Shown here piece by piece: positions 13,801 through 62,756 of a stretch of DNA of 64,000 nt (position 1 is its first letter; every line of letters starts with the position of its first letter). The notes under the pieces were generated by a model. The model was not told where the DNA came from. It worked only from the letters and a program-made list of their open reading frames with translations, and did not search any database. The DNA comes from Naegleria gruberi. Lineage: Eukaryota. The DNA lies in assembly GCA_000004985.1 (NCBI GenBank), contig GG738847.1; one strand, 5' to 3'. The position numbers were made by a program, and so were the translations under genes.

Positions 13801-14086
13801 TCGATCCCGATTTATCCAAAGCAATAATCAATAATTTTCCTTGATTTTTCGAAGTATGCTGCTGCTGCCAGAACTCATCTCTGATCGCCAACTGAATGCG
13901 AACAATTTCAATTGGCGTTGTTGTAGTAGTATTGGTAGGATCACTCAGAGGCGAAGCAACACTGAAAAATTCTTGTTTGATGACCGACACGAAAAATGAT
14001 GCATCAGTAATTTGTGATTTTTGTTTTGCATTTTTTTTTCTTTTAAAATGTTGTAAACGTGATACGTGAACTTTGCTGATATTCAT
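10889..14086 (-). CDS. large von Willebrand factor A (vWA, MIDAS) domain protein
   Basis: The N-terminal vWA domain has MIDAS residues (LLIIALDKSGSMAG ... AGGGTDFSS ... IFFTDGQD). About 800 aa of unrecognised sequence follow. The true ATG (MNISKVHVS) lies at 14086, downstream of the ORF track's GTG start. Confidence 0.8.
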   Translation of the reverse strand: MNISKVHVSRLQHFKRKKNAKQKSQITDASFFVSVIKQEFFSVASPLSDPTNTTTTTPIEIVRIQLAIRDEFWQQQHTSKNQGKLLIIALDKSGSMAGSGISEAKLALETLLSNVEGCNERILFIVFDSNSELIDMTNMELENKLQVVKKVSAGGGTDFSSVFKIIRNYGGSLNGQVAIIFFTDGQDQYSSNSTREGSIKSLQERLNTESESYEFHTIGFTSVHDARLLTDITRLGTAQGSFQFAESVSSIAPCMASLTELVKGSSFTCQLIVKNKEGNEIFRERVKLEQDNDKSEFIIQSLINTDITPDCELYLEFGENELIIPLSYEAFKRPELSSVEKLSYQIMIIEKFLIEAAGLITKNSSSLKEIHIKCKAIEEKLESITTDIRKMRDKSVRRTLYQMIQPIFESLANFNKILAESMVGTLSNEKIANLNTLAYRSITKRSLQKKLDLRAQANVELFEQAENIIQESVDSMNFTEIKEKYSKQAEEIGPCFYTTSNWIDLLQDKDCLCLGLQVNRPQAAIADPSRVQIVSVSNSMMSAESFLDSVTFSLGSAYNVEDSHGGFKDVPVSQGQVSNSQSKIISGASRESINAVLPLYISEEHWRVSRQKMKPILGFIATLDIMGYSFEQFKTIPFLVLYKLLQESSEGQLTEFQALRLKLVMDTCLQIVKECSAEKVEEKLSETLTKLFSQYNMLPESRTLDVIPNNEVFITQLLCSNKIGLIDVSNSQVDTNLFFKNIAEEELRRKGAFVLNIPEVSVDLWFELLNVDTETMINQFVSRKKEKFMELLNNSSDKIYQYGEIMRKLVGVEENTVSDEVSQTETVTSQPLVDENQDLIDYVLELTQLSPKATELFQKLDKFYNKNINKHLTKIKQWMFGSQQSEISLELDNAAKIILLTQTIDHQKNSDRRYAIDKGEYLSPFTTTPEQRTDHLRATITKHIKNRRNGLYTNFVTEMNSSGINQLGPLFASTSDIYEAAGIIYGRKRGHGVHIALFYYLCQTEKVPHLVAKVKMLATGEFKGILLYSDKMADPVWSIYRSYKRSLLRKLWRYHSSELDQQGLF

Positions 14087-14365
14087 TTCTTCCACATGCA
14101 CTCTCTAGCATTCTGCAATTGCATATGAGGCATGTGTTGATTGTGTTGCTGGTTCAGTGTGGATTTTGCATTCAATGTTAACAGTGCACTATGAGGATTG
14201 ATTGGGAATGGTGATTCAATATTTGATTTCAAATTGTTGTGTGGTTTTCAATGGTTTATTGGGATATTTCTGTATGGGATCACTATTTAATTCTAACTCA
14301 CAACTTCAGCAATATCATATGATTTGAATGTCAAGTGTCAATAGTAGAAACAAATTCATTAAAAA

Positions 14366-34995: not shown

Positions 34996-36207
34996 TTATA
35001 TTGTAAGATCTATTAATTGTTTCATTTCAGTGAAGTATTTTGTTCCTTCTTCAGTAATAAAATTGTTTCTAATATCAAGTTTGGTCAATTGTTTCAATTC
35101 ACTAATGTATTTAGCTCCTTCATTACGAATCTTATTGTTATTAATATAGAGATAGATCAATTTCTTCAATTCTCCAATAGGCATAGCTCCTTTATCGCCT
35201 AAATGATTAGTTTTAATATCAAGATAGATCAATTGTTTCAATTCACTTAAATATTGAGCTCCTTCATCTCCAATTCTATTATAAGATAAATCAAGACTTT
35301 TTAATTGTGCCAATTGACCAAAATATTCAAGTCCTTCATCACCAATATCATTTTTACAAATATCAAGATTTTTCAATTGATTCAATGAACTAATGAATTT
35401 AGATCCTTCATTTCCAATACGATTGCTATTAATATGAAGAGTGGTCAATTGTTTCATTTTGCTTACATATTTAGCTCCTTCATCACCAAGCCAATTACTG
35501 GAAATATCAAGACAGGTCAATTGTGTTAATTCACTTAAATATTTAGCTCCTTCAGCACCAATATCATTTTCATCAATAGAAAGAGTGGTCAATTGTTTCA
35601 ATTCACTTATGTATTTAGATCCTTCATTACCAACACGATTGCAAAAAATAATAAGAGTGGTCAATTGTTTCAATTCTCTTAAATGTTTAGCTCCATACTC
35701 AGAAATACCATTACTAGGAATACTAAGATAGGTCAATTGTTTCAATTCACTAATATATCGAACTCCCTCATCACCAATATGACTTCCATAAATCGTAAGT
35801 TTGGTCAATTGTTTCAATTCACTTATATATTTAACTCCTTCTTCATCATCACATCTAATGATAAGTTTAGTTAATGATTTCATCAAGATTAATTTTCTAT
35901 AGGTATCCCTTGTGATCACACCAACTTTAAGAGTTGCAATATTCTGTAAAAATCGGCCACTCATTCCACCAACACCACCAAATCTACAATTCAGATTGAG
36001 ATGATTACATGTTGATAAAATAACATGGAACCACTCTTTGGATACCAATGCACAATTCATGACAATAAATTTAAAATCATCCAAGAAGGACAAAATTTCA
36101 TAAATAATGTCAGTGGGGAATTTATAATCTTGCGACAGTAAGTTCTCCGTACTTGTTTCTGCTTCTTCTTTGTGTGAAAGTTGGATACACATTGTGTGTT
36201 TGTCCAT
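34996..36207 (-). CDS. F-box + RNI-like leucine-rich-repeat protein
   Basis: N-terminal F-box (DIIYEILSFLDDFKFIVMNCALVSKEWFHVI), then about eleven 24-aa LRRs of the form LKQLT.L.I..N.IG.EGAKYISE. Confidence 0.85.
   Translation of the reverse strand: MDKHTMCIQLSHKEEAETSTENLLSQDYKFPTDIIYEILSFLDDFKFIVMNCALVSKEWFHVILSTCNHLNLNCRFGGVGGMSGRFLQNIATLKVGVITRDTYRKLILMKSLTKLIIRCDDEEGVKYISELKQLTKLTIYGSHIGDEGVRYISELKQLTYLSIPSNGISEYGAKHLRELKQLTTLIIFCNRVGNEGSKYISELKQLTTLSIDENDIGAEGAKYLSELTQLTCLDISSNWLGDEGAKYVSKMKQLTTLHINSNRIGNEGSKFISSLNQLKNLDICKNDIGDEGLEYFGQLAQLKSLDLSYNRIGDEGAQYLSELKQLIYLDIKTNHLGDKGAMPIGELKKLIYLYINNNKIRNEGAKYISELKQLTKLDIRNNFITEEGTKYFTEMKQLIDLTI
35050..35880. repeat. 72-bp coding LRR tandem array
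   Basis: A repeated DNA unit ...ttggtcaattgtttcaattcact(t/a)a(a/t)tatt(t/g)agctccttcat(t/c)accaa... recurs every 72 bp. Confidence 0.7.
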
Positions 36208-36653: not shown

Positions 36654-39600
36654 ATGTACATAAAACCATCAAGATCCTCTTCACAGCTGAACAAACACTT
36701 CATATTCCTATTGATTCTCATCATATTGTCCATTTCCTTCATTAATGCACAATCCAAGACAATCATCTTCCTTCCCTTCTGTTCCTCCCTCACAATCTCT
36801 CCAACCAGTAAGGTATTGAGCTCCAACTCACTCTCTCTTACAATATCAGCTCCGAACACTCTGTGGTAGGTTTATCATATATTCGGAATGTTAACATTTG
36901 TAAATTGTTAAGGTTGCCAAAATCAACAGGCCAATATTATCAATTGAACACCTTGACAGCGAGTGATGCTACTGAACAGATCAAGTCACTAGTCGTTCTG
37001 TCTGATCCTAAGGCTGGTGTTGCTAGATCTCCTTCAACTGTTTCTGTTCTATCTGCTTCATCATTTAGTGTTCAATTTACTGGATTGACTAGCAATGCTC
37101 GATTCACATTATTAATTGCTTATGGATTTGCTTATTTGGATGTGGAAACTACCAGTTATGTTCAATTAATTATGATATCCTCACAGTCAGTGTATAACTA
37201 TGCTACAGGAACAGCTCAAATTGAGACATTTGCTTTACAGAACTCGTATGAGAGCTCATTGGGTCAATTTTGTTTATCTAATTTATCTCCATATGCATTG
37301 ACATATCTTTCTCAAATTGATAATATTCGAAACAATGTATTTTCATCTCCATATCTTCAATCTCAAAAATTAATTCTCAATGGTAAATGGAATGGACAAC
37401 CAACTTTACAAAAAATTACAGAATTTGTTTCGAATGGATTCACCTATCAATTGAAGAGTAGTATTGATATCCAATTCCAAGAATTAGCAAATACTCAAAT
37501 CATAATTCCTTTACAATTCAAGAGACATATTGGAGCTGTCTTTGAAAAGATTGATATTGATGATTTCAAGATTAGTGAAAGACCAGCTGATCCGCAAGAA
37601 TTGGAAAGTCTATTCGAAAGGATACGTCAAGAAACTATCTTTTACAAGGTGAGTCTTGATCCTAATACCGCTCCAGTCTCTCAGGAATATTTAACAGGAG
37701 CAGCTGCTGAAACTAATGTTGCCATTCTAATGACCTATGCCTATTACTGGGCAGATTTCTTTGATTGGTATCGTAATCCAATGGTCAGAGTGATAATCAA
37801 GGATGGTATTATTGGAATGATTAGTATTTCAGTGGCAGGTCTCAATTATTTCACATGTCCTTATGGTTCTCTTCGTAGTGAGATACAACACTTTACTCAG
37901 GGAGACTCCTACCATTCGATTGGTTATTCCTCCATCCATTCGATATACACATTTGCCTATGATCAAAAGAATTGGAAAATCAATACGCAAGTGAATATCA
38001 ATACTAATGGAATGGTTGCAAATGTTGCCAGCCTGTCAAATTTTGAAAATTCCTTGAGTTGCATTGATGGAAATTTCAAAGTAACCCTCTCGGATAATGT
38101 ACTAGCAGATTATGAAAGCTTTTTCACTGATAACTATATGATTTCCAAGATTGATACTAGAATGTCCATTCAGTCAATTGAAAATTTTACACTTCTCTAC
38201 GTTGACGATTTGGGAAGTGAATTCACAGGCCCATTAATTACACCAGAGAGTTTCGTTGGAGATTTGCAATTCAATCCAGGATTTTGTGATGAAACTATTG
38301 GTACTGGATTAGGAAATCAATTATCTTACTATTTTTCTTCTAGTGATTTTTCAGTCGAAAGGTTTCCAGAATATTCGACAAGATTGAGCTATGAAAATGG
38401 AGTTTCTTATCTTTCAGATACAAATTCTGTTGGTTTAAAGTATTCCAATCATGAATATTTGCAGGATTTCTCCATAGAAATTGATCAATCTATTCTATTA
38501 TATAAGGAACCCAAAGTTTCATCTGTGAATTTCACATTAATTCCAAATCGTTCAGAATGGAATGAAATGAATGCTACAATTCAAATATTTTCCTTTAACA
38601 GTGGGGATTGGGGTGGTGAATTCACTGTTGAATTGACTTGTTCCTATCCAATCATAATTTCCAATAATTCGCCTCAGAAATTCAACGTGGAGCCAGGACA
38701 AAACTTTACAGCCTTCTTCACTGTCAAGAGTGATTTCGACTCGTGCAAAACTGTATCCCTCCAATCTGTGTGTGATTTCAAAATTTCCATCAAGAAAGAA
38801 CAATTGTGGACTAATCTAGAAAAGGAAATTTCTGCCCATGAATCTGTGGCCATAGATTATGGATATTTCATTCCAAGATGTCAAGCCAAATATAATGAAC
38901 CATTCCTCTGGCTGGAGAATATGACCCTATCCTCTCCATATTTCCAGAGAAGTGCCCATGATGGATTTGTCAACTCAATTCTCGTAGTTTTGAAAACTAA
39001 TAGTTCAGATTTAATCCTTTCGAATATTGCAAGCGGTCTGTTGGCAGATTCTAATAATCCATTCCACTCATGGAAAGATTACTCAATTATTATGCAACAT
39101 GCTGAATATTACATGTTGAACTTTACGATTTCAAGCACAAACGTTGCTAGAATTTTAAGTGAACGAGTTGACCAAACGCTTTACACATTCTCCCTCAATT
39201 TAACTCTATTAGATAATTATATTTGTTGGTCAACAAATGGAAAAGGAGGAATCTTCCCATTTTCCTTTAGTGTTGCCTACGATTGTCCAATCGAGTATAC
39301 CGGTATCCAATGTGATATTCCATTATGTTATGGAATTAATGCAACCAATTATACGAACGTATGTTCAGGTCATGGTGATTGTGTATCGCCAGATTATTGT
39401 TCCTGTCATGCAAATTACACATCTGCCACCTGTTCTGTTCCTATTTGTTATGGTGTTCGTGGAGATAATTTATCTACTTGCTCATCCAAAGGTTCTTGTA
39501 TAGATGCTAATACCTGTACCTGTCAGAATGGTTATACAGGTGTCAATTGTGAAATTCCAATTTGTTTCAATGTTCCAGCTAATTTTTCACATTCATGTTA

Positions 39601-42600
39601 TGGACATGGTAACTGCATTGATCATGATCTTTGTTCATGTAATGATGGATACACTGCTTCATTGAATTGTTCACTTCCAATATGTTATGGATTAGATTCT
39701 AGTCAGCTAATTGTTTGTTCTTCACATGGACAATGTTTGGCTCCAAATAATTGTTCATGTTTTGATGGTTTTACATTCGATAATTGTTCAATTCCAATTT
39801 GTTACAATATTGATGCTTCCAATAGTTCAGTGTGTACTGGATTTGGTGAATGTTATTCTCCAAATAATTGTAAATGTCATGAAAATCATATTGGATTACA
39901 ATGTGAAATTCCAATTTGTTTTGGAGTTCCATCAAATGAAACTCAGTCGTGTAATGGTAATGGACAATGTATTCAATATAATGAATGTGTGTGTCATTTA
40001 GATTATACAGGACTCAATTGCTCCATTCCAATATGTTTTGGAAGTAATGCCACCAACCCAACTGTTTGTTCTTCGCATGGCGTTTGCCAAGCACCAGATC
40101 AATGTCAATGTCATGAAGGATATACTGGAATACAATGTGAAATTCCAATTTGTTTCAACATTCCAGCAACCAATTCCAGCACATGTTCATTCCATGGAGA
40201 ATGTATCGACCATAATCTTTGCACATGTCATGATGGATACACTGCTGCATTGAATTGCTCCCTTCCAATATGTTATGGATTAGATTCTAGTCAATCAATG
40301 GTTTGTTCTTCACATGGTCAATGTTTGGCTCCAAATAACTGTACATGTTTTGATGGTTTTACATTCGATAATTGTTCCATTCCAATTTGTTACAACATAG
40401 ATGCTTCCAATAGTTCAGTATGTAGTGGATTTGGTGAATGTTATTCTCCAAATAATTGTAAATGTCATGAAAATCATATTGGATTACAATGTGAAATTCC
40501 AATTTGTTTTGGCGTGCCATCAAATGAAACTCAAGCTTGCAATGGTAACGGACAATGTATTCAATATAACGAGTGTGTGTGCCACTCAGATTATACAGGA
40601 ATAGACTGTTCAATTCCAATATGTTTTGGAATTAATGCTACTAATCAAAGTCATGTTTGTTTTTCACATGGTATTTGTCAAAAACCAGATCAATGCCAAT
40701 GTCATGAAGGATATACTGGAATGCAATGTGAAATTCCAATTTGTTTCAATATTCCAGCTATTAATTCCAGCACATGTTCATTCCATGGAGAATGCATTGA
40801 TTTCAATCATTGTTCTTGTCATGATGGATACACTGCTTCATTGAATTGTTCACTTCCAATATGTTATGGATTGGATTCTAGTCAGCTAATGGTTTGTTCT
40901 TCACATGGTCAATGTTTGGCTCCAAATAATTGTTCATGTTATGAAGGATATACAGCTGAAAATTGTTCCATTCCAATTTGTTACAACATTGATGCTTCCA
41001 ATAGTTCAGTATGTAGTGGATTTGGTGAATGTACTTTTCCAAATAATTGTAAATGTCATGAAAATCATGTTGGATTACAGTGTGAAATTCCACTTTGTTT
41101 TGGCGTGCCATCAAATGAAACTCAGTCTTGCAATGGTAATGGACAATGTGTTCAATATAATGAATGTGTGTGTCATTCAAATTATACAGGAATAGATTGC
41201 TCAATTCCATTATGTTTCAATATCAATGCCACCAACCCAACTGTTTGTTCTTCGCATGGTATTTGTCAATCACCAGATCAATGCCAATGTCATGAAGGAT
41301 ATACTGGAATGCAATGTGAAATTCCAATTTGTTTCAACATTTCAGCTAATGATTCCAGTACATGTTCATCCCATGGAGAATGTATCGATTTCATGATCTT
41401 TCACTGTCATGATGGATACACTTCAGCAAATTGTTCAATTCCAATATGTTATGGATTAGATTCTAGTCAATCAATGGTTTGTTCTTCACATGGACAATGT
41501 TTGGCTCCAAATAACTGTACATGTTTTGATGGTTTTACATCTGATAATTGTTCAATTCCAATTTGTTACAACATAGATGCTTCCAATAGTTCAGTATGTA
41601 GTGGATTTGGTGAATGTTACTTTTCCAAATAATTGTAAATGTCATGAAAATCATGTTGGATTACAGTGTGAAATTCCACTTTGTTTTGGCGTGCCATCAA
41701 ATGAAACTCAATCTTGCAATGGTAATGGACAATGTGTTCAATATAATGAATGTGTGTGTCATTCAAATTATACAGGAATAGATTGCTCAATTCCATTATG
41801 TTTCAATATCAATGCCACCAACCCAACTGTTTGTTCTTCGCATGGTATTTGTCAATCACCAGATCAATGCCAATGTCATGAAGGATATACTGGAATGCAA
41901 TGTGAAATTCCAATTTGTTTCAACATTTCAGCTAATGATTCCAGTACATGTTCATCTCATGGAGAATGTATCGATCATGATCTGTTGCACATGTCATGAT
42001 GGATACACTTCAGAAAATTGTTCAATTCCAATATGTTATGGATTAGATTCCAGTCAGTCAATGGTTTGCTCCTCGCATGGCCAATGCTTAGCTCCAAATA
42101 ATTGTTCGTGTTTTGAAGGTTTTACATTCGATAATTGTTCCATTCCAATTTGTTACAACATAGACGCCACCAACCAATCAGTATGTAGTGGATTTGGTGA
42201 ATGTTCTTCTCCAAATAATTGTAAATGTCATGAAAATCATGTGGGATTACAATGTGAAATTCCGCTATGTTTTGGAATTGCATCAAATGAAACTTTGGCA
42301 TCGTGCAATGGAAACGGCCATTGTTTTGCAGTGGATTCTTGCTCTTGTAATCAAAATTATACTGGAGCCAATTGTTCTATTCCTATTTGCTTTGACTTCA
42401 ATGCCACCAATTCGAAGGTATGTTCGGGACATGGAAGTTGTTCGAAACCAAACTATTGCGAATGTTTTGAAGGTTATATGGACACCCAATGTGAAACTCC
42501 AATTTGTTTTGATATTCCAGCAACTATGAATAATACCTGTTCTGAAAATGGCATTTGCCAAGATTACAATCATTGTAATTGTAGCTCTGGGTTTACTTCT

Positions 42601-45600
42601 TCAAATTGTTCAATTCCTATTTGTTTCGGTTCGAATGCCACTGACGAAACAGTATGTTCCTCACATGGTCAATGTCTTTCTCCTAATAATTGTTCCTGCA
42701 GTGATGGATACATGCATTCAGATTGTTCTCATCCAATTTGTTTCGGGCTTGAATCAACTAATCGAAACTCTTGTTCTACTCATGGCACTTGCATTTCACC
42801 AAATTCATGTCAATGTGATGGCAATCATGTAGGTGACATGTGCGAAATTCCACTTTGTTTCAATATCCCGGCCAATCATAACTCAACTTGCAGCTCAAGT
42901 GGAAAATGCATTGGTGTGAATTTGTGTGAATGTTATGGAAATTTCACAGGAATGAACTGTTCTGTTCCAATTTGTTTTGATGAGAATTCAACTTCCATTA
43001 TGAGTTGCTCGTCGAGAGGAAGATGTATTGGACCCAACCTGTGTGAATGTCAAGTTGGATATACTGGTAGCGTTTGTGAGTATCCTGTTTGTTACGGTTT
43101 CTATTCGGAAGATGTAAATTCATGTTCAGGACATGGAGAATGTATTGACTATAACAAATGTCAATGTGAAAATGGGTACGTTACTGAGAATTGTTCCATT
43201 CCTGTGTGTTTTGGTTTGAATAGTTCAGATTCCAATGTTTGTGCTTCCCATGGCGATTGCTTGTCACCAAATAATTGTTCATGCCATGAAGGATTTACAT
43301 CAATCAATTGTTCCATTTCAATTTGTTATAATTCACCTGCCACTGACCCATTTGCATGCAATGGAAAAGGAAATTGTGTAAATCCAAATGAATGCGCCTG
43401 TCAAGAAGGTAACATAGGATTACAATGTGAGATTCCACTTTGTTTTGGCGTGCCATCAAATGAAACTCAGTCTTGTAGTGGTAATGGAGAATGTATTCAA
43501 TATAATGAATGTATGTGTCATTCAAATTTTACAGGACTCAATTGTTCCATTCCAATATGTTTTGGTATAAATGCCACTGATCAAAGTCACGTTTGTTTTT
43601 CACATGGTATTTGTCAAGAACCAGATCAGTGTCAGTGTCATGAAGGATATACTGGAATACAATGTGAAATTCCAATTTGTTTCAATATTCCAGCAACCAA
43701 TTCCAGTACCTGTGCATCCAATGGAGTTTGCATTGATTTCAATAATTGTTCTTGTCTTGATGGATACACTTCGGAAAATTGCTCCCTCCCAATATGTTAT
43801 GAATTGGATTCTGGTAAATCAATGGTTTGTTCTTCACATGGTCAATGTTTGGCTCCAAATAATTGTACATGCCTTGAAAGATTTACATTCGATAATTGCT
43901 CCATTCCAATTTGTTACAATATTGATGCTTCAAATAGTTCAGTATGTAGTGGATTTGGTGAATGTTCTTCTCCAAATAATTGCAAATGTCATGAAAATCA
44001 TATTGGATTACAATGTGAAATTCCACTTTGTTTTGGAATTCCATCAAATGAAACTCAGTCGTGTAATGGTAATGGACAATGTATTCAATATAATGAATGT
44101 GTGTGTAATTCAGATTATACAGGAATAGACTGTTCAATTCCAATATGTTTTGGAAGTAATGCCACCAACCTAACTGTTTGTTCTTCGCATGGTATTTGTC
44201 AATCACCAGATCAATGTCAATGCCAAGAAGGATACACAGGTACCAACTGTGAAATTCCCATTTGTTTCAACATTCCAGCTAATGATTCCAGTACATGTTC
44301 ATCCAATGGAGAGTGCATTGATTTCAATAATTGTTCTTGTCATGATGGATACACTTCAGAAAATTGTTCAATTCCAATATGTTTCAATTTGAATAGTACT
44401 GATTCTAGTGTTTGTAACTCTAATGGAATTTGTACTTCCCCTGACAAGTGTCAATGCCAAGAAAATTTCACAGGTGAAAATTGCTCAATTCCAATATGTT
44501 TCGGATTGGCAGCAAACTCAAGCGGGGCATGCTCCGCATCTGGAAGTTGTGTTTATCCCAATACATGCCTCTGCAACCAAGGAATCATTGGCATTAATTG
44601 TGAAATACCTTCCTGTTTTGGAATATTCCAAAATAATAGCCAATCCTGCTCAGGAAATGGAATTTGCATTGAACTGAACAAATGCTCATGCTACCTAAAC
44701 TTCACAGGTGAATCCTGCTTAATTTCTGCATGTAATGGTATTGCCTCTAATGATAGCTCTGTTTGTTCCGGAAAAGGAAAATGCACAGCTCCAAATCTTT
44801 GTGAATCATGTGAGGAAAATTACTTTGGAGAATGGTGTGAAATTTCACAATGTTTTGGAATATTCTCGAATCAGAGTCAAGTTTGTTCTGAAAATGGAAA
44901 GTGTGAATCTTACAATAATTGTAATTGCTCAATGGGTTATGTTGGGGAAAATTGTAATATTCCTGTATGCTTTAAAATTAATTCAACCGATGAAAATGTT
45001 TGTAATTCTAATGGAATTTGTACTTCTCCTGATTTGTGTTCATGTAATTCCAAATATGGAGGTTTAGAATGTTCAGAACCGAAATGTTTTGGAAAAACAA
45101 CATTAGAAGGTGCATGCAGCTCGAAAGGTAATTGCACACAACCAGATTCATGTACTTGTGAGAAAGGTTTCTTTGGTATTTCATGTGAATTGCATTCTTG
45201 TTTTGGAATTCAATTGAATGATTCGAGTGTGATTTGTTCTGGACATGGTGAATGCAAATCTCTGGACGAATGTGAATGTGACAGTGGTTACTTAGGTGAA
45301 TCATGCTCCATCCACACCTGTTTTGGGATTACATTCAATGAGAGTGGTGTTTGCAGTGGAAATGGAAGTTGCTCAAGTTTGGACAACTGTACCTGTTATG
45401 GAGATGGAAAATTCTATGCAAATTGTACTTTAATTCCAAGTGATTCTCCAATAATTGATAGTGATGTACCTTCGAATCATACAGAAATATCCAATAATTC
45501 AAGTTCTTATCCAAATTGCTTTAACATTTCGGCAAATCATTCGAATGTTTGCAATGGAAATGGAAATTGCACAAGTGAAAATGAATGCAAATGCAGAGAG

Positions 45601-47835
45601 GGATATTTTGGTGGGGAATGTTCTCTATTTGCATGTTTTGGAAAGGAATCAGCTGATTCAAGTGTTTGTTCATCCAATGGAATATGCGCGAGTCCAAATA
45701 CTTGTAAATGTCGACCAGAAAGATATGGCTCTCAGTGTCAACTTGTCAAATGTTTTGAAATTCTTTCTAATCAGTCCAATGTTTGTTCCAGTAAGGGTTC
45801 ATGTCAAGATACCAACGCATGCATATGTAATGAGGGCTATTTCGGCCCCATGTGTAATATCACAAGTTGTGAAGGAATTTTGAGTAATAATTCTCAAGTT
45901 TGTAATGGAAGTGGACAATGCACTCATTACAACACTTGCCAATGTAAGGAAGGATTCATTGGATTGAACTGCCAATTCACCAAATGCAACTCTACATCGT
46001 GTAGGCATGGAAGTTGCATCACTACCTCTCAGTGTGAATGCGAAAGTGGATGGACAAGCTCGGAATGCAATCTTCCTATTTGTTACGATTTGTTGGCAAG
46101 TGACTCGAATGTTTGTTCTACACATGGCAAATGTATAGCTCCAAATAAGTGTAACTGCTCCACAAATCCATTGTACATGGGTGATAAGTGCCAATACTTA
46201 CAATTAGATAGTTTGCAATGTAGTATTAATCCATCACTCAATTTGATACCAATTGAGTGGACAATTTCAGGATTGGATAAAATAACATTTGATATGAGCT
46301 CGAAGGAAATACTTGTTAGAAACAGTATCCCATACAGTACATCTCTCCATTCCAAATCAAAATTCAACTACGAGCTCAATATTTACAACACTGGAAAGCG
46401 ATCTTTCAATTATCAAATTAATTCATTCTGTGAAAATGGAATTTCATTCAAACAATTGGGAATTTCTTCTCAATTCGGATTATTACAAGAAGGAAACAAT
46501 GCAAATATTAAGGATTTACAAAATATTGGATTTGCTCTCTTTTGGAATGATGAAAGTTTGAAATATGAAGATATTAAATGTCATGTCGAATTAATAGTCA
46601 ATCCGAAAGATCAATTCGATGAATGTCAACACTACGATTCGAATACTGAAACATCCTCCAAATATAATATTACTCTCATATTGGAACGTACAAATGTTTG
46701 TCAATTTTTGAAAGAAACAGATTTACCACTGACCTTTTCAAGCACTCAATTGTCAACCATGAGTGAAATAGCTCTAATTGATGAAAATATTCTTTCAGAT
46801 AACGATATTCTCAAAATTATTAATACATTCACTCAAAAGAGGAATAACTGGCAAATAATTAATAAGGACAACAGTACTCTTCAAGCTAACATCTTGTTAA
46901 CTGCCCAGTTGAGTAATCCAAACAATGAATTGGGACTTTTTGTTCCATCTCTGATATGTAAGGATGAAAGAATTGTTGATGACATAGAATTTACCACAGA
47001 ATATCTTTCCAATCAATCTCCATTCTCCATTTCTCACTCTCTACAAAAGATTCAATTCCAATTCAATGTTACAATTAAGAATGTTTCGAATTATGTTGAT
47101 TATGGTAGAGTGAGAGGAGGAAAGGAAGGAATGGCAACAGTTCTCATTGAGGACATGCTCCTTAATTGTTCTCTCATTCTCCTACCAAATCCATCTGAGT
47201 GTTGGTCCAACACGAATAGAAATTCCACATTCTCCAAATATATCATTTCACACTTTACACTGCCAATTGTTTCTGGTGAATTTTCATTCTTCCAAGCTGT
47301 GAGATCCTTCGAAATAGGTATCATTACACTTACCTACACTTGTATGGGCATTGGTTTTGCATCCATGATATGCACGACCAAAGTTCCTCGAGATCGAAAA
47401 CATTCTCTGCTCCAACTTGTAGAATTTGTCAAGGAAAAGAGAAGAAACAAACTCAACTCTACATCTGATGACTCCAAACCACTCCTAGAGAATCAAATTG
47501 ATAGGCCATACTGTGAAAATTGTGGTCATCACACTCGGAAGAAAGCTCGTTATGCCATTCGTGTGGAAAATTATGATGCTAATTGCGAAATGTTCATTTG
47601 TGAGAATCAGGTATGTTTTGAAGCCATGATCTCTCTCCACAATAGAGGATACTCCCATCACTATCAATGTTTCGACTTGGATAAAGAAGAAGATTGTCAA
47701 CTCATGATTGAAACACCATTCAAGACACTTGCTGATAATTTTGATGAGTCGGATATTTATGAATCTATGGATATTGAATTTCCAATACCTTCCGATATCA
47801 ATGATGATGAAGAAGATGACTCTGATTTATTCTAA
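36654..47835 (+). CDS. giant type I membrane protein with ~75 six-Cys EGF-like modules; interrupted by two +1 frameshifts
   Basis: Exon 1 (36654..36865) encodes a signal peptide (HFIFLLILIILSISFINAQS). A 47-nt GTAGGT...GTTAAG intron joins it in phase to exon 2 at 36913. An ~800-aa N-terminal domain is followed by EGF-like units of the form C.IPIC(Y/F)x4-9C.xHGxCxxPxxCxCxxGYTGxxC, then a stem, a TM helix (IGIITLTYTCMGIGFASMICTT) and an acidic cytoplasmic tail. The frame breaks at about 41617 and 41984, so the ORF track splits it into 36863..41632, 41577..41999 and 41812..47835. Confidence 0.75.
39640..44400. repeat. ~580-bp super-repeat (5 EGF modules each) array with very high inter-copy nucleotide identity
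   Basis: The module order YGLDSSQ / YNIDASN / FGVPSNETQ / FGINATN / FNIPATN recurs about eight times. Copies are nearly identical at the DNA level and become more divergent downstream to about 46200. Confidence 0.8.
41040..42000. repeat. near-identical direct tandem duplication (~580 bp, two copies)
   Basis: 41040..41620 and 41620..42000 differ at only a few positions. The junction copy carries two single-base insertions relative to the other copies: tgtTactttt instead of tgtactttt, and ctGttgc instead of ctttgc. Confidence 0.75.
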
Positions 47836-47937: not shown

Positions 47938-49248
47938 ATGGGTCAACCAATGAATAGACAATTACAGCACACTGGTTTGATATCAGAAAGTGTAAATGAA
48001 GTATTCGCATCGGAAGATGAAACTCTCTCGGAAAATGTAACAATTTCTGATCAGAATAACCCTCTATTTGTTTTTGATATATTGTCTGAGATTTTCTCAT
48101 ATTTGGATAATTTTACAGTTTATTTGAGATGTGTATTGGTTTGTAAAACTTGGAGATATTGTGCTTGGCATTTGTTGGATGAATTTAATTTTAGATATGA
48201 TGATTTGGATTTGTTATTTTATGGGAAAGAGGGAGAACGAATTGCCAAGCAATTTAATCCTTCTCTTGGAAGATCGGAGGCAGTCCGATTGAATAATACT
48301 CAAATGTTGGAGTACATGTTGAATTTAATTGTGAGAAATGCTAGATATTTGAAAAAGTTTAATGTTGTTGGAGCACAACAGAATGAGGATATTAAAAAGA
48401 TGATCAATGATGAGAGAATTGCACTCTTGATGAGATCTTGCTCTGAAAACTTGGAAATGTTGGATTTATCTTCTTGCGATAATTTGAAAGAGGTTTCGTA
48501 TAGTCAAATACTGAACAAGTGTAGAAAAACTTTGAAATCACTCAAACTCAGATGTAGTTTAAGCATTAGAGATACCTTTGCTAAGGATTATATTTCAACA
48601 CTGGAATCTTTGGAGTATCTCAATCTTTCGAAATGTTGTTACATTGGACTTTATAGTTTAATACCAATTTCTACCAATTGTACGAAATTGAGAGTTTTGG
48701 ATGTGTCTGGATGCACGTCATTTTATGGATTTAGCTTTTTAAGGAATTGTACAGTATTGGAAGAGTTACATGTACAAACAACATATTTTTCCTCAGATGA
48801 TTTCCAATACATTCCAAATTCATTGAAAATTTTGGATGTGCAAAATTGCGAACAAGTGAGAAGGTTGAATCATGTAGCAAACTTGGAACACTTGGAGGAA
48901 ATCAACCTTTCCTACAATAACATTCAACTTGAAGGAGAGTGGAAGAATCACGTTATGAAATGGAAAATTCTAAAGGCAATTTCAGTACCAGTTGGCTGCG
49001 AGTTATTAGACCAAACACCATACTTGAAACATTTAGAAATTGGTTTCCTTGAAGCCTCTGCTAGCATTACAATGCTAAGTGTTCTCAAGAGGTCTCATTC
49101 ATTCACAGAGGAAGATTCAACAGCCAAGCTCAGCACCAATCTGAAACATTTACTCATAACTGATTCACACCTTACTCACTCTTTTGTTGAAGAATTGAAA
49201 TACTATTGTCCTTCAATAGTATTAAAAACTCGACGTTGCAATATCTAG
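47938..49248 (+). CDS. F-box / Cys-containing LRR protein (FBXL-like)
   Basis: F-box (LFVFDILSEIFSYLDNFTVYLRCVLVCKTWRY), then cysteine-containing LRRs (LDLSSCDNLKEVS, LNLSKCCYIGL, LDVSGCTSF). Confidence 0.8.
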   Translation: MGQPMNRQLQHTGLISESVNEVFASEDETLSENVTISDQNNPLFVFDILSEIFSYLDNFTVYLRCVLVCKTWRYCAWHLLDEFNFRYDDLDLLFYGKEGERIAKQFNPSLGRSEAVRLNNTQMLEYMLNLIVRNARYLKKFNVVGAQQNEDIKKMINDERIALLMRSCSENLEMLDLSSCDNLKEVSYSQILNKCRKTLKSLKLRCSLSIRDTFAKDYISTLESLEYLNLSKCCYIGLYSLIPISTNCTKLRVLDVSGCTSFYGFSFLRNCTVLEELHVQTTYFSSDDFQYIPNSLKILDVQNCEQVRRLNHVANLEHLEEINLSYNNIQLEGEWKNHVMKWKILKAISVPVGCELLDQTPYLKHLEIGFLEASASITMLSVLKRSHSFTEEDSTAKLSTNLKHLLITDSHLTHSFVEELKYYCPSIVLKTRRCNI

Positions 49249-51405: not shown

Positions 51406-53277
51406 ATGAGCAAACATCTAGAGGGTGAAATTCTCTCACCCTCAACAAGAACATTTTCATCATCACGTGATGATGAACTTGAAACTTTTCATCAACTGCA
51501 GCAACGAATTCTTCATCATCATCATGAGGGGAAGAATATTTCATCATCATCGGCACCTTCGGATCATGAAATTAAAATCAAATTGAATACACGAGATGGA
51601 GGAAATGAGGATGATGCAGATGATGCACAAATTAAATACTTGATACCTCCTAATGAATTAAACATGCAAGGATCCGAATTATTTATGAAGGCTTCACCCA
51701 TGTTGGAGGCAATTAGAATGAAGTTTAGACAAGGAAGGGCTGGGGGAAGAAAAAGATATTGTCTCATGCCCTATGATTTGGATTTGACAATGATTACATC
51801 ACGAATTATTGCAACTTCACTTCCCACTTTGAATTGGTTTGTTGGATATTTTAGAAATGATGCTAGTGTTTTGGCAAAGTTTTTGGAGGAAATGTATGGA
51901 AAGGATCATTATATGATTTATAACTTGTCAGAATTCCGATATGAGAAACAAGTTTTTGATGGAAAGGTTGTTGATTTGAATTTTCCTGATCACTATAATC
52001 CACCATTGGACTTGTTAATGATGGGTTGCAAGAGTATTCAAGATTGGCTTGCAAGAGATGAGAAAAATGTTGCATTAATTCATTGTGCTGGTGGAAAGGG
52101 AAGAACAGGAACATTTATTACTGCCTACTTTTTATATTGGTATGTTTTATTTTACTGTTTTCTTATTCAAATAATAATATGTTTAATATTTTATGTAAAA
52201 TATTTAAACTGTTTAATTTGCATTTCTAATAGTTCACTTTTCCGTGATGCAATGGATGCACTCATGTATTTTGCTCTGATGAGAATGGAAAAACCTGTCA
52301 ACCCATTCTCAGTTTGTCAGAATGGTGGTATTAATTCTCCATCTCAAATCAGATACATTACCTACATTCAACATTTGCTGGAAAATAAGTTTGGATCCAA
52401 ATCTCAACGACACACTACCACTAACCCTCAATCTTACTTGTACAATAATACGATATTCGAGAAGGATAACCTATTCTTGAAAAATCATTGTAACATTCCT
52501 GTAAAACAATGTGTTAAATTGGAAAAAATTGTAATAAGAGAAGCTAGTCAACAAATTGTTGACCATGTAAAAGCCAATACATTCTTGTGTGAAATTTGTG
52601 AATTGAGAATACACAAGTTTGAAGAGACTCATAGCCCAATTAGAAATACTCTAGATATTGAAGATTATGAAGTTAGAAAGGAGATTTTACTAACTTTTGG
52701 TAATGAATTTTGTGAAATTAATGGTAATTTATTGAAATTCAATTTACCGAAATCGGTAGCACTCTCTGGTGATGTCATTATCATTATGAGAATGAAGAAT
52801 CATATCAAAATGAAAGAGTTTGCTAGAATTGGTTTCCACACTGCATTCCTCATTAATAATAGACTCTCCCTTACCAAGCCTGAAATTGATGGTGTTCACA
52901 GAAGAGAGACAGTTGGCTCAGATTTTGGAATGGATTTTTACTTTGAACATTCCAATAATGAAACAATTCAATCCACTACCACTGAATACTCTCTCAATAA
53001 TCTCTACCAGTTACCAGAGCAACCTGCCACGCTCAGTCCTCATCACGTATTTTTATACGATACTGACTTCCACTTCCCTTATCATTCCTATCTCAAAACT
53101 CAGAGTGTTGAGAAAATAGAAACAACAACTATGGAAACTCTCTCCCCATCAGTCATCCACTCTCAACAAGTTGTTCACATCAGACCAATGAAATTCAAAG
53201 TCAAATTGGCACCAACCTTACACGAAATGGATCATGCCAAAGGTAAATTCATTTCACTCACCATAACTCTAGGTTAA
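51406..53277 (+). CDS. PTEN: PTEN-like phosphoinositide 3-phosphatase, 2 exons
   Basis: The phosphatase domain is collinear with PTEN: RKRYCLMPYDLDLTMITSRIIA, HYMIYNLSEFRYEKQVFDGKVVDLNFPDHYNPP and the P-loop IHCAGGKGRTG. A 93-nt GTATGT...TAATAG intron spans 52140..52232. There is an ~110-aa N-terminal extension and a ~280-aa C-terminal region. Confidence 0.9.
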   Translation: MSKHLEGEILSPSTRTFSSSRDDELETFHQLQQRILHHHHEGKNISSSSAPSDHEIKIKLNTRDGGNEDDADDAQIKYLIPPNELNMQGSELFMKASPMLEAIRMKFRQGRAGGRKRYCLMPYDLDLTMITSRIIATSLPTLNWFVGYFRNDASVLAKFLEEMYGKDHYMIYNLSEFRYEKQVFDGKVVDLNFPDHYNPPLDLLMMGCKSIQDWLARDEKNVALIHCAGGKGRTGTFITAYFLYWYVLFYCFLIQIIICLIFYVKYLNCLICISNSSLFRDAMDALMYFALMRMEKPVNPFSVCQNGGINSPSQIRYITYIQHLLENKFGSKSQRHTTTNPQSYLYNNTIFEKDNLFLKNHCNIPVKQCVKLEKIVIREASQQIVDHVKANTFLCEICELRIHKFEETHSPIRNTLDIEDYEVRKEILLTFGNEFCEINGNLLKFNLPKSVALSGDVIIIMRMKNHIKMKEFARIGFHTAFLINNRLSLTKPEIDGVHRRETVGSDFGMDFYFEHSNNETIQSTTTEYSLNNLYQLPEQPATLSPHHVFLYDTDFHFPYHSYLKTQSVEKIETTTMETLSPSVIHSQQVVHIRPMKFKVKLAPTLHEMDHAKGKFISLTITLG

Positions 53278-55133: not shown

Positions 55134-56438
55134 TTATTCCTTCTTGGCTTCTGTGGTAGCTGAAGGAACAACTTCCTTCTTTGTTGGCATGGTAAAGGAG
55201 AGTTTACGAACAGAGAGGAATTCCTTGACTTGTTCATCGGTAATCTTCTTTCTTCTCTCTTGATGTTCGGCAACCATCTTTTGCAAGAGGTCAATCAATG
55301 CTCCCTTGACTTGACCAGTCAACATCTTACCAGTTGAGTACTTTTCACGAATATCTTCTAATTGGACATCATCTTCCAAGAAGAATTGCAAATATTGATA
55401 AGGAACGTCAACAGCCAAGTTAGCTCCATACTTTTCTTGGTCTTCCTTGGTGGCACCACCTCCAGAGAAGGCATGTTTGTTAATCTTATCCTTAATTTGC
55501 TTTGGAGTATCTGTCAAGAAGATTGAAGAAGTGTCAGATGAGGATGACATTTTCTTGTTAGCACCTTGCAAAGCAGGGAAGAATTTGGAGTGAATGAGAG
55601 CTGGCTTTTGGAAACCCAATTTTGGAGCAACATCTCTTGTCACTCTAAAGTATGGATCTTGATCAATAGCACATGGAATCAAACACATAATATCATTCTT
55701 TCTCTTTGTCTTCTTTTGCTTCTTTTTATCTTCAGCTGTTTCTGGGAAAATGTGTGGGAATGAAGTATAGAAGGAAGGAGCAGCTTGAATAGCAGGGAAT
55801 GAGAATTTACCAATATTATCGGAATCTTCAAAACCAAAAACACCTTTAACTTGACTACAAGTTACAGACTTTTCAATTTCGAGAACAGTTCTATATAAAT
55901 GTCCCATATAATCCAAATTGGAGAAGATGAAAGTCTTACTCATATCAAAACCACAGGCAATAATATCCTTGGCGTTTTCATAAGTCAAACGATGAGCTTC
56001 TTCCAATTCCAACTTTTTCCACAAGAACTTTTCATCATCGGTCATTTGAACTACCAAAGGAACATCAAAAACATCTTGCAAATATTTAGTAAACATGAAA
56101 GGAATCAAGTGACCCAAGTGCATTGATTCACTGGATGGTCCTCTACCAGTATATAAATAAAAAGGTTTGCCTTGTTCATAGTAATCCAACAATTTGTGCA
56201 TATCACGATGTGAGAAGAAAATTCCTCTCTTCAAAAAGTGGTGGACAGGCTTCTTGGTAACACGTTCAATACGTTCTAACAAATCTTCAGAAATTGCTTG
56301 AGAACCGAATTGATTAATTAATTTACCATAATCGACACCATCATCACCAGCATCAACATCCCAAGGGGTGACTATTTGTTCCTTCTTTTCTTGTTGTTGT
56401 TCAGTGCTTTGTATTGGTTCTTGTGGTTGTTCGGACAT
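55134..56438 (-). CDS. WARS1: tryptophanyl-tRNA synthetase (cytoplasmic type)
   Basis: HIGH-type motif in [18 protein letters not shown] and a KMSSSS (KMSKS) motif. The whole catalytic core is collinear with eukaryotic TrpRS. GC3-rich preferred codons. Confidence 0.9.
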
Positions 56439-61217: not shown

Positions 61218-62756
61218 ATGAAGAAGACAACGTTTGTTAGGAAGGGAGCCTCTCTTCAGAGACAACTCCCAACAGGTACCAAACCATCTGTACACAATGG
61301 ACAATTACTCGTCTCATCAGGTCTTCACGATTTGGATAGTATTATTGGTGGTGGTTTTCCTTTGGGAAGTTTGGTTTTAATTGAAGAGGATCGTTATAGT
61401 GAATATTGTCAGAATTTGATGAGGTATTTCCTCTCGGAGGGTGTTACTAATAGACACTCTGTTGTCTGTGGTATTTTCAATCAACAACAAATTGCTCAAC
61501 AACAAGCATCATCATCATTGCTTCATCCTTCTCTTTCCTCTGTTTTTGCTTTTAATTATTCACGTTTTAAACAAGAACAAGAATTGAAGGAAGAAGAAAA
61601 GGAAGCCTCTACTACTGCTCAAACATCTGCTACTTTACCAGAAAAAACCGAAGAACAACAACCAACAAAACCAGCCTCTAATAGTATTATGGATAGATTG
61701 AATAGAAAAATTGGAGCCAATGCTGCATCTAATAGTAGTGGAGGTTCTACTACTCAACTCTCTAATTCAACTTCTCAATCAGGAAATGATAGTGAATTGA
61801 AAATTGCTTGGAGATATCAAGATTTCGTCGAACAACAAATCAAGGCCAAACAACAACGTGGTACATCATCTTCTGCTAGCTCTGGAGAAAAGAGTGGTGT
61901 TATTGGTACTGTTTTGTGTAGTGAATATGATTTGAGTAAGAATATGCAAGAGGAATTAATCAAGGAAAATTTGGATGGTATTCATGTCTTGTTTGATAAG
62001 GATGAAATTTTCGAAAGTGACAAGGAAGAAATTAAAATGTTCTACGATGACATACTGAAAAAGATTGCCAATATTATCACAGAGAGTAAGAAGCATTTTG
62101 CTTCAACAGCTACTGGAAATGAAATTTCAAGCAGAGCAGTTGTTAGAATTGGATTACAATCACTGGGATCATTGTTCTATAATTCTGGATCCAATACTCA
62201 CCATCATAATTACATGCTCAGATTCCTTTTACAATTGAAGAGTCTTTTGAGGTCTAGTCTTTCAGTTTGTGTCTGTACAATTCCAAAGGTAGCTCTTCAA
62301 ATGATGTCATCATCTTTGATTCAACAATTGGAACAATTATCGGATTTATCCATGTCTATTGACAGTTTTACAGGATCTCAATTGGATGTTAGTGATTGGG
62401 AATTTAAGGAATATAGTGGACTTTTCTACATTAAGAAACTTTTCAAGATGAACTCTCTGACCTATAATTTCACTCCTGATACTTTGAATTATGCTTTCAA
62501 GATTAAGAAGAGAAAAATGTACATTGAAAAGTTGCACCTTCCACCAGAAGAAACCAGAGAAGCCTCAAATCCTGATCGACCAAAGTTCAAAGCTTCCAAC
62601 GATGTCGAAAGACACAAACTCAAAGTTAACAAGGTTTTGAAGGAAGTTCCATCTGTGAATCAACAAAATGATCAATCACTTCAACAAGCAGATGATCACG
62701 TTTTTGGTTGTGCATCTCAGTCAAGTGTGACAGGATCTAATCCATTAGATTTCTAA
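61218..62756 (+). CDS. ELP4: Elongator complex protein 4
   Basis: N-terminus GTKPSVHNGQLLVSSGLHDLDSIIGGGFPLGSLVLIEEDRYSEYCQNLMRYFLSEG is collinear with ELP4/PAXNEB (G.RPS..NGQLL.S.G...LD.LLGGG...G...LIEED.Y). Confidence 0.8.
   Translation: MKKTTFVRKGASLQRQLPTGTKPSVHNGQLLVSSGLHDLDSIIGGGFPLGSLVLIEEDRYSEYCQNLMRYFLSEGVTNRHSVVCGIFNQQQIAQQQASSSLLHPSLSSVFAFNYSRFKQEQELKEEEKEASTTAQTSATLPEKTEEQQPTKPASNSIMDRLNRKIGANAASNSSGGSTTQLSNSTSQSGNDSELKIAWRYQDFVEQQIKAKQQRGTSSSASSGEKSGVIGTVLCSEYDLSKNMQEELIKENLDGIHVLFDKDEIFESDKEEIKMFYDDILKKIANIITESKKHFASTATGNEISSRAVVRIGLQSLGSLFYNSGSNTHHHNYMLRFLLQLKSLLRSSLSVCVCTIPKVALQMMSSSLIQQLEQLSDLSMSIDSFTGSQLDVSDWEFKEYSGLFYIKKLFKMNSLTYNFTPDTLNYAFKIKKRKMYIEKLHLPPEETREASNPDRPKFKASNDVERHKLKVNKVLKEVPSVNQQNDQSLQQADDHVFGCASQSSVTGSNPLDF

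Follow-up and report, generated by a model that had tools for sequence, protein, structure and literature searches.

We analyzed a 64,000-nucleotide stretch of the Naegleria gruberi genome (NCBI GenBank assembly GCA_000004985.1, contig GG738847.1; hereafter the window), in which a single gene of ~11 kb, locus NAEGRDRAFT_62182, occupies positions 36654-47835 on the + strand. This gene is real and very large and encodes a membrane-anchored surface glycoprotein. If 2 single-base insertions in the assembly are ignored, the product is a type I membrane glycoprotein of 3710 amino acids, composed, in order, of a signal peptide, a head of ~840 amino acids, a stalk of 58 epidermal growth factor (EGF)-like modules, a membrane-proximal domain of 372 amino acids, a transmembrane (TM) helix, and a cytoplasmic tail. 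Profile comparisons suggest a divergent HAP2/GCS1 (fusexin)-like ectodomain for the head, with a similarity that is remote but consistent. An earlier note on this DNA, made from the sequence alone, had described a giant EGF-module surface protein at this locus; its observations were confirmed in part and its interpretation was supported in part, and the 2 frameshifts, the truncated public annotation, and the HAP2/GCS1-like head had all escaped it.

The start codon lies at 36654, with an in-frame stop just upstream at 36633-35, and the stop codon lies at 47833-47835. Exon 1 (36654..36865, + strand) has 71 codons, covering the signal peptide (36654-36752, +; MYIKPSRSSSQLNKHFIFLLILIILSISFINA/Q) and the initial ~38 residues of the mature protein. 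The hydropathy maximum of the exon 1 product falls at amino acids 12-35, and the product aligns with the N-termini of homologues from Naegleria fowleri and Willaertia magna. It is followed by a GT..AG intron of exactly 47 nucleotides (nt; 36866..36912, +), whose removal joins frame 0 of exon 1 to frame 2 of a long open reading frame (ORF) and so restores the frame. In alignments, the spliced junction (…SAPNTLW/LPKSTGQYYQLN…) falls within unbroken sequence of both the N. fowleri and the W. magna homologue, and the junction peptide, reading …APNTLW/LPKSTG…, is contiguous in the N. fowleri counterpart. Because the spliced product aligns without a break in both homologues, the 5' structure drawn in the earlier note, a signal-peptide exon followed by a 47-nt intron, is supported. 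The giant exon 2 (36913..47835, +) is broken in the assembly by two +1 frameshifts and appears as 3 overlapping + strand ORFs, each in its own frame (36863-41632, 41577-41999, and 41812-47835); with the intron and bases 41618 and 41984 removed, a single clean ORF of 3710 amino acids is obtained. The head and the first EGF modules share one ORF, and the possibility, raised in the same note, that head and EGF array belong to different genes does not hold.

The public gene model (NAEGRDRAFT_62182, XP_002682216, D2V061) has 1693 amino acids. Its start codon, at 36745, is an out-of-frame ATG, its first intron has 100 nt (36813-36912), and it lacks the signal peptide; it then hops over the first frameshift by way of a 73-nt "intron" (41594-41666) and ends at 41999, at a stop made by the second frameshift. 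The model is truncated because the 2 insertions break the frame, and the reference annotation is wrong at both ends, with an N-terminus out of frame and a 3' end cut at a frameshift. As a device for skipping the frameshift, the 73-nt "intron" was considered and rejected, since it deletes the core of an EGF module. The 3' 5.8 kb, encoding EGF modules, stem, TM helix, and tail, was absent from the annotated N. gruberi proteins in 1 search, itself unreliable.

The EGF array (39326..46191, +), delimited by cysteine pattern and Pfam, consists of 58 modules with the pattern C-x10-C-x5-C-x5-C-x-C-x8-C, separated by 4-residue linkers. The complete six-cysteine pattern was recovered by regular expression in 57 modules, and the remaining 1 lacks a cysteine; the ~75 modules counted in the earlier note were too many. 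Among the Pfam families, EGF_TEN (PF25024) scored 270-323 bits against a gathering score of 65, EGF_2 (PF07974) scored 184-296 against 22.1, and EGF_Teneurin (PF23106) and EGF_PEAR1L were likewise above their cut-offs. The modules are bona fide tenascin/teneurin-type EGF modules. N-glycosylation sequons number 104 in the EGF region, compared with 41.8 +/- 5.5 in composition shuffles, and the loop between the first and second cysteines (C1-C2 loop) carries one in 45 of the 57 intact modules, in agreement with the dense sequons noticed before; the same shuffles gave no enrichment in the head or the membrane-proximal domain.

We measured the periodicity of the array by lag self-match analysis and repeat-finding. 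Self-matches peaked at a lag of 117 nt (44%) and at 585-591 nt (40%, peak 588), compared with ~32% at most other lags, and the repeat families were spaced 585-591 nt apart; Tandem Repeats Finder reported no repeat, the unit exceeding its 500-nt period limit. Eight 5-module units of 585-591 nt each span 39683..44379 (+), with the C1 codons of their type-A modules at 39683, 40271, 40862, 41447, 42034, 42622, 43207, and 43795. Modules 4-43 follow the order ABCDE of 5 module types, with exceptions at 3 positions in unit 6, which bears out the strict 5-module super-repeat proposed for the first ~40 modules. The accompanying claim that the copies are almost identical at the nucleotide level fails: it applies to a tract shared by units 3 and 4 alone, because pairwise identities of the units range from 57% to 94%. 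Units 1-4 and 8 are 87-94% identical, with synonymous divergence (dS) of 0.12-0.45 among them, and dS exceeds 1 for unit 6, where it is saturated, and for most comparisons with unit 5. Unit 5 is intermediate and units 6 and 7 are old, with the last 3 modules of unit 7 again resembling the young units.

Beyond the array lies the membrane-proximal domain of 372 amino acids (46192..47307, +), which is conserved in N. fowleri and W. magna, and then the single TM segment, FEIGIITLTYTCMGIGFASMICTT (47308..47379, +), with a conserved K-(V/I)-PRDR next to it. The pattern FEIG…GFAS…K(V/I)PRDR is found in the 3 species, and the TM segment together with the following K(V/I)PRDR is unusually conserved. 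The cytoplasmic tail of 151 amino acids (47380..47832, +) has an acidic end and contains 34 D/E versus 19 K/R, so that the single TM helix and acidic tail of the earlier description both stand. Within the tail, a Cys/His motif, CENCGH-x21-25-CE(N/S)QxCF(E/D)A…C (47512-47673, +), is conserved across the 3 species and is probably a small metal-binding module; it had no match in Pfam or the PDB. Pfam assigned the membrane-proximal domain and the tail to no family.

An exhaustive HMMER search with the head recovered the annotated protein of the locus itself, a paralogue (NAEGRDRAFT_69794), a full-length W. magna protein, and an environmental fragment (P0138). A word-indexed protein search with the same query had missed even the identical annotated self protein; because the exhaustive search later found the family, word-indexed negatives are unreliable for such low-complexity-rich queries. 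The C-terminal part, for which the word-indexed search gave 1 hit, allowed us to identify N. fowleri FDP41_011210 (A0A6A5C967, 2986 amino acids), annotated as "EGF-like domain-containing protein" and intact in GCA_008403515.1. The W. magna homologue, ABK040_013066, has 2171 amino acids. In both proteins, a signal peptide, HAP2-like head, EGF array, membrane-proximal domain, TM helix, and tail follow one another as in N. gruberi. Head identity to the N. gruberi protein is 35% for N. fowleri and 26% for W. magna; for the C-terminal part, the values are 44% and 35%, respectively. Both reading frames are intact, unlike that of the N. gruberi assembly, and the N. fowleri orthologue has 1 intron of 85 nt at a position other than that of the 47-nt intron. 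The paralogue NAEGRDRAFT_69794 (D2VLI8, 2085 amino acids) likewise has type I topology in the membrane. Its head shares 52% identity with that of the giant protein and is followed by EGF modules, but it has only ~4 of these, then a long, sequon-dense region rich in N/S/T and another domain, and its TM segment differs and its tail is short and different. One head type is carried on 2 kinds of stalk within N. gruberi.

HAP2/GCS1 is the ancestral eukaryotic gamete fusogen, and we found its Pfam family, PF10699 (HAP2-GCS1, male gamete fusion factor; 515 profile positions, gathering score 27.4 bits), among the matches of the head family. The head (36753..39325, +) is homologous to those of FDP41_011210, ABK040_013066, and NAEGRDRAFT_69794. 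PF10699 matched the N. fowleri head at residues 404-659 (profile 182-436; 33.9 bits, E 1.8e-8) and the environmental relative P0138 at residues 221-353 (profile 333-450; 32.3 bits, E 5.5e-8). Sub-segments of the W. magna head (residues 138-309, profile 279-451; 24.5 bits, E 1.2e-5) and the N. gruberi paralogue (residues 156-303, profile 284-434; 19.9 bits, E 3.1e-4) also matched, below the cut-off. PF10699 was the best non-EGF Pfam family in 4 of the 5 family members, in one register, with 2 above the gathering score. Mapped from these homologues, the HAP2/GCS1-like part of the head (profile ~182-451) is placed at 37994..38833 (+) and includes a "...FC...LGNQL" motif at 38309-38335 (+). The description of an ~800-amino-acid unique N-terminal domain in the earlier note holds in that a region of ~840 amino acids is contiguous with the array; it is not unique, given its homologues and its apparent relationship to HAP2/GCS1.

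A family profile compared with all PDB sequences at E<=10 gave 2 matches alone, both to domain III and both at the same profile positions: archaeal Fusexin1 (Fsx1; 7p4l, E 0.002-0.003; chain 343-416) and Arabidopsis HAP2 (5ow3, E 0.62; 403-452). These matches place a predicted fusexin domain-III-like beta-sandwich at 38543..38788 (+). It contains 2 cysteines that are invariant in all 5 family members (codons 38639-38641 and 38771-38773, +) and that align with C368 and C411 of the Fsx1 chain, that is, C389 and C432 after a construct offset of 21 residues. In Fsx1, C389-C432 is the invariant domain III disulfide (betaC-betaF) of HAP2-type proteins (PMC9259645). A domain III sandwich with its invariant disulfide was thus recognized, at the level of sequence. 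An hhalign comparison of the family with a 4-sequence HAP2 alignment gave E 0.036 in the same register as the Pfam matches, and a weak profile-profile match sets "…FC…LGNQL" on the "…C…CL-x-NQL" of canonical HAP2. The protein would belong to the HAP2/fusexin superfamily as a divergent member or derive from it. The last ~130 residues of the head form a further beta-sandwich, a pre-EGF subdomain (38906..39295, +), which is the sole part of the head model with a predicted local distance difference test (pLDDT) score of ~70. The pre-EGF subdomain and the first EGF module also match further giant EGF proteins, among them NAEGRDRAFT_58267 (5396 amino acids) and a Logan-assembly protein of 3689 amino acids; the subdomain could be a "cap" module of EGF arrays in its own right.

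The number of modules differs widely among the 3 species (at least 13 for W. magna, 36 for N. fowleri, and 58 for N. gruberi), as expected from the rapidly evolving repeat number proposed earlier. Modules of the N. gruberi super-repeat are 83-100% identical to their sister module compared with 50-64% to any N. fowleri module, and outside the super-repeat the within-species and N. fowleri identities are equal. Between units 3 and 4, we found a run of 59 consecutive agreeing polymorphic sites, which was matched in 0 of 5000 permutations. The strongest period of the N. fowleri array (VFQX01000009.1) is 591 nt, or 5 modules, and adjacent units there share an exactly identical tract of 286 nt, in frame, with flanks 74-78% identical. 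The 5-module registers of the 2 species do not correspond, and the N. gruberi type B has no N. fowleri counterpart. These results support recombination operating within the array: identity is higher within than between species, and identical tracts are arranged as mosaics, as in concerted evolution. Lineage-specific amplification and gene conversion are supported because N. fowleri has its own 5-module period and in-frame identical tract; each lineage therefore remodels its array independently, through duplication and conversion in 5-module steps. The ongoing crossing-over or conversion inferred in the earlier note holds for tract-level footprints, but continuing homogenization across the array was not seen, as most units have diverged from each other at between a quarter and a third of their synonymous positions and are under purifying selection, with ratios of nonsynonymous to synonymous divergence (dN/dS) of 0.1-0.33. 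The locus is a clear case of stalk-length evolution by recombination, in 5-module steps and independently in 2 species.

Both frame breaks border the near-identical tract of units 3 and 4. Unit 4 is a mosaic, with its first 190 nt nearest to unit 2 (7 differences), its next ~356 nt corresponding to unit 3 with 2 differences, and its last ~45 nt resembling unit 1. Unit 3 carries the near-identical tract at 41034..41389 (+) and unit 4 carries it 586 nt further on, at 41620-41975; its longest exact run is 245 nt. An alignment of the 8 units places the first +1 insertion, T at 41618 (+), at the 5' edge of the unit-4 tract, in a context (GAATGT-T-ACTTTT) that looks like a hybrid of unit-2 and unit-3 sequences, and the second, G at 41984 (+), a few bases past its 3' edge. 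Both junction sequences resemble hybrids of 2 unit types. The defective module 18 (…ECIDFMIFHCHDGY…; 41330..41434, +), which lacks its fourth cysteine, is scrambled at ~41393-41410, a position that the alignment suggests is the unit-3 counterpart of the second frameshift (41984 less the lag of 586 gives 41398); the indel scrambling in unit 3 converts …DFNHCSC… to …DFMIFHC…, at the cost of 1 cysteine. Downstream of the breaks, 2007 codons run without a stop, and the dN/dS of 0.1-0.33 between units applies on both sides of the frameshifts, so that inactivation, if there was any, would have to be extremely recent. The AAA-TAA at the end of the first shifted frame led us to consider programmed +1 frameshifting, which we rejected because a slip at the stop of the second site would lose 2 module cysteines and nothing else supported it. 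A DNA pattern specific to the junctions had 0 matches in the Joint Genome Institute (JGI) metagenomes scanned. Look-ups by exact sequence with the downstream ORF, the NCBI model, and a neighbouring gene likewise yielded no N. gruberi contig and hence no second, independent copy of the region with the frameshifts. In metagenome ERZ929261, contig k127_141758 (2.7 kb, ENA) encodes a tryptophanyl-tRNA synthetase (TrpRS) 100% identical to the N. gruberi protein of the window; N. gruberi-like DNA thus seems to be present in this sample, which may include reads that cover the repeat region independently.

We judge the balance to tip modestly toward both frameshifts being Sanger consensus errors, produced from mixed reads within a near-identical repeat of ~590 nt, over their being real lesions. 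A very recent pseudogene or null allele of the laboratory strain, in which a sloppy conversion or unequal crossover between units 3 and 4 left single-base insertions close to either end of the converted tract, would account for both insertions lying at or beside the edges of the 356-nt tract, for the indel-scrambled, cysteine-deficient module at the homologous position of unit 3, and for the truncation of the public model at the same place, and the unique head and tail of unit 4 indicate that this unit is no simple copy artefact. We nevertheless find such a lesion rather doubtful, given that the 2007 downstream codons are free of stops in a genome of 34% GC, that units on either side of the breaks are under purifying selection, that a mixed-read consensus would be expected to leave hybrid-looking junctions of the kind present in the 2 copies, and that the equivalent N. 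fowleri tract is in frame. Equally doubtful in our estimate is a mis-assembly that collapsed or expanded the array and made the unit count, and perhaps unit 4 itself, artefactual. Three local anomalies do cluster in units 3 and 4, the repeat spacings imply that removing any in-register 587 nt across both insertions would restore the frame, and the unit length of 585-591 nt is near that of the Sanger reads behind the 2010 N. gruberi assembly; against this, every unit, unit 4 included, has private substitutions, and the N. fowleri orthologue (GCA_008403515.1) has the same kind of array with an intact ORF. That the locus holds 2 genes, the annotated 1693-amino-acid product and an independent one downstream, we regard as scarcely credible: the public annotation does end at 41999, but the downstream ORF opens partway through an EGF module and lacks a signal peptide, the module period continues straight through the break, the homologues are single proteins, and the annotated "intron" at 41594-41666 excises the core of an EGF module.

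The architecture was compared with known EGF-bearing systems. Like tenascins, teneurins, and MEGF10/Draper/PEAR1, the protein has six-cysteine modules arranged head to tail with 4-residue linkers, and like the MEGF receptors, it is a type I protein with a signalling-type tail; its module number is far above that of any of these, and its C1-C2 loop, of 10 residues with a sequon, sets it apart from the arrays of all these proteins. Pfam found none of the teneurin NHL, YD-repeat shell, or toxin-like C-terminus in the protein, nor the FN3 repeats or fibrinogen globe of tenascins, and it carries an N-terminal signal peptide and a C-terminal TM helix, unlike the type II teneurins. The EMI domain of MEGF10/Draper/PEAR1 had no Pfam match, and the NPxY motif is absent from the tail, where YESM and YQCF are the only tyrosine motifs and YESM has no counterpart in the tails of the 2 homologues. 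Because these defining domains are absent, the protein is not a teneurin, tenascin, Notch ligand, or MEGF-type receptor. Giant EGF arrays are common in Heterolobosea, with NAEGRDRAFT_58267 (5396 amino acids) and Percolomonas proteins of 3.8 thousand amino acids as further examples. In the literature, we found no description of an architecture with a HAP2-like head on an EGF stalk and no paper mentioning accessions of this head family.

The likeness to HAP2/GCS1 and Fusexin1 extends from the PF10699 matches on family heads, the domain-III-like sandwich with its disulfide, and the "...C...L-x-NQL" region to the overall plan, in that HAP2/GCS1 and this protein are both type I membrane proteins with cysteine-containing tails. 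The differences are that sequence similarity is very low, that the half bearing the fusion loops is undetected, and that ~2700 residues (the 58 EGF modules and the domain of 372 amino acids) follow domain III here, compared with the short stem of HAP2/GCS1. We propose, with confidence slightly above even, that the whole is best explained as a long-reach receptor with a HAP2-like head on an EGF stalk, encoded by a single N. gruberi gene. At ~2-3 nm per EGF module, the array would form a stiff rod holding the HAP2-like head ~100 nm or more from the membrane. The head would bind a surface or membrane partner on another cell, for example a mating partner or prey, and the conserved TM segment and Cys/His tail would couple this binding to the cell interior, with the tail relaying or sorting. 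The protein is thus envisaged as probably a long-reach adhesion or recognition receptor and not a fusogen itself; adhesion or recognition is favoured over fusion because ~2700 residues part domain III from the anchor and because canonical HAP2 is encoded elsewhere in the genome. The adhesion or surface-coat role suggested in the earlier note may be kept as a reasonable functional guess. The head diverges fast, with 35% identity to N. fowleri compared with 78% for TrpRS, a pattern that would be compatible with mating-related or with prey or surface recognition.

Several observations count against this explanation. The HAP2 link of the N. gruberi head is transitive, through homologues 35-52% identical to it: Pfam assigned no family to the N. 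gruberi head, and PF10699 had no match at E<=10 on it or a sub-segment of it, although HMMER filters may hide weak ones. HMMER likewise found no match between the family profile and the canonical Naegleria HAP2 fragment, hhalign returned a weak signal (E 0.036-0.18), and the PF10699 matches leave out profile positions 1-181, where the fusion loops lie. AlphaFold2 models of the head (5-sequence alignment, pLDDT 41.8) and the C-terminal part (3 sequences, 41.4) were both unusable. The gene as assembled cannot encode the full protein; its flanking genes are not syntenic with those of N. fowleri, so that orthology rests on architecture and best hits; and literature searches by accession and for Naegleria with EGF or adhesion returned nothing specific, with no expression, localization, or binding data found. 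Single-sequence searches of the PDB gave no match, and a scan with a head pattern gave no relatives. The HAP2/fusexin similarity could accordingly be spurious, a matter of composition or of a generic Ig-like beta-sandwich, with the head being a lineage-specific adhesion domain; besides the missing direct Pfam match, the unmatched canonical fragment, and the want of support from structural models, weak matches to Ig_CFAP65, a beta-sandwich, appear alongside. We hold this to be unlikely, as HAP2-GCS1 is the top non-EGF family in 4 of the 5 members in one register, with 2 beyond the curated threshold, as an independent library (the PDB) yields 2 sequences at E<=10 that are both fusexin domain III, and as the invariant disulfide is matched.

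More improbable still, in our view, is that the protein is the membrane fusogen itself, a working HAP2 paralogue in cell-cell fusion. Its head is HAP2/GCS1-like with a domain III hallmark, and PMC9928731 reports HAP2 with "several paralogs" in Naegleria. In class II fusogens, domain III and a short stem fold back onto the trimer beside the membrane anchor (PMC6327110, PMC9259645), but here domain III is not joined to the TM helix by a short stem: 2288 EGF residues and 372 more lie between domain III and the anchor, and the fusion-loop region is unmatched. The canonical HAP2, moreover, is a different gene. The PMC9928731 supplement gives canonical Naegleria HAP2 as the separate gene EFC41606, and orthogroup OG0000563, as listed there, holds EFC41606.1 and KAF0982544/5 and not EFC49472 or KAF0982280, which leaves this gene outside the canonical Naegleria HAP2 orthogroup; the same study has a second "HAP2" orthogroup, OG0010275. 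The long-reach receptor with a HAP2-like head therefore remains our preferred explanation.

We further suggest, tentatively and with less confidence than that explanation, that Heterolobosea (Naegleria and Willaertia) possess an undescribed HAP2/fusexin branch, with a fusogen-like ectodomain atop a long, fast-evolving EGF stalk (mucin-like in the paralogue) and with a new membrane-proximal domain and Cys/His module. In such a branch, the class II fold would be reused for long-range recognition or capture, possibly in a sexual cycle; to our knowledge, a sexual cycle of Naegleria has never been observed. If so, a paralogue family with ~13-58 intervening EGF modules would show that the HAP2 fold can be redeployed beyond fusion, and the family would offer a surface marker for Naegleria mating biology or prey recognition, the pathogen N. 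fowleri included.

The window has a GC content of 32-36% throughout, and its eukaryotic genes are densely packed. The giant gene stands between 2 F-box/leucine-rich repeat (LRR) genes: the 5' neighbour (34996-36207, - strand) is divergently oriented across a 446-nt intergenic region, and the 3' neighbour (47938-49248, +) begins 103 nt past the stop codon of the giant gene. The neighbours of the N. fowleri orthologue are entirely different from these F-box/LRR flanks. Elsewhere in the window, we identified genes for a VWA-domain protein of 1070 amino acids (10889-14101, -), a PTEN-like phosphatase with a C2 domain (51406-53277, +), the TrpRS (55134-56438, -), which is 100% identical to the N. 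gruberi protein, and an Elp4/PAXNEB homologue (61218-62756, +).

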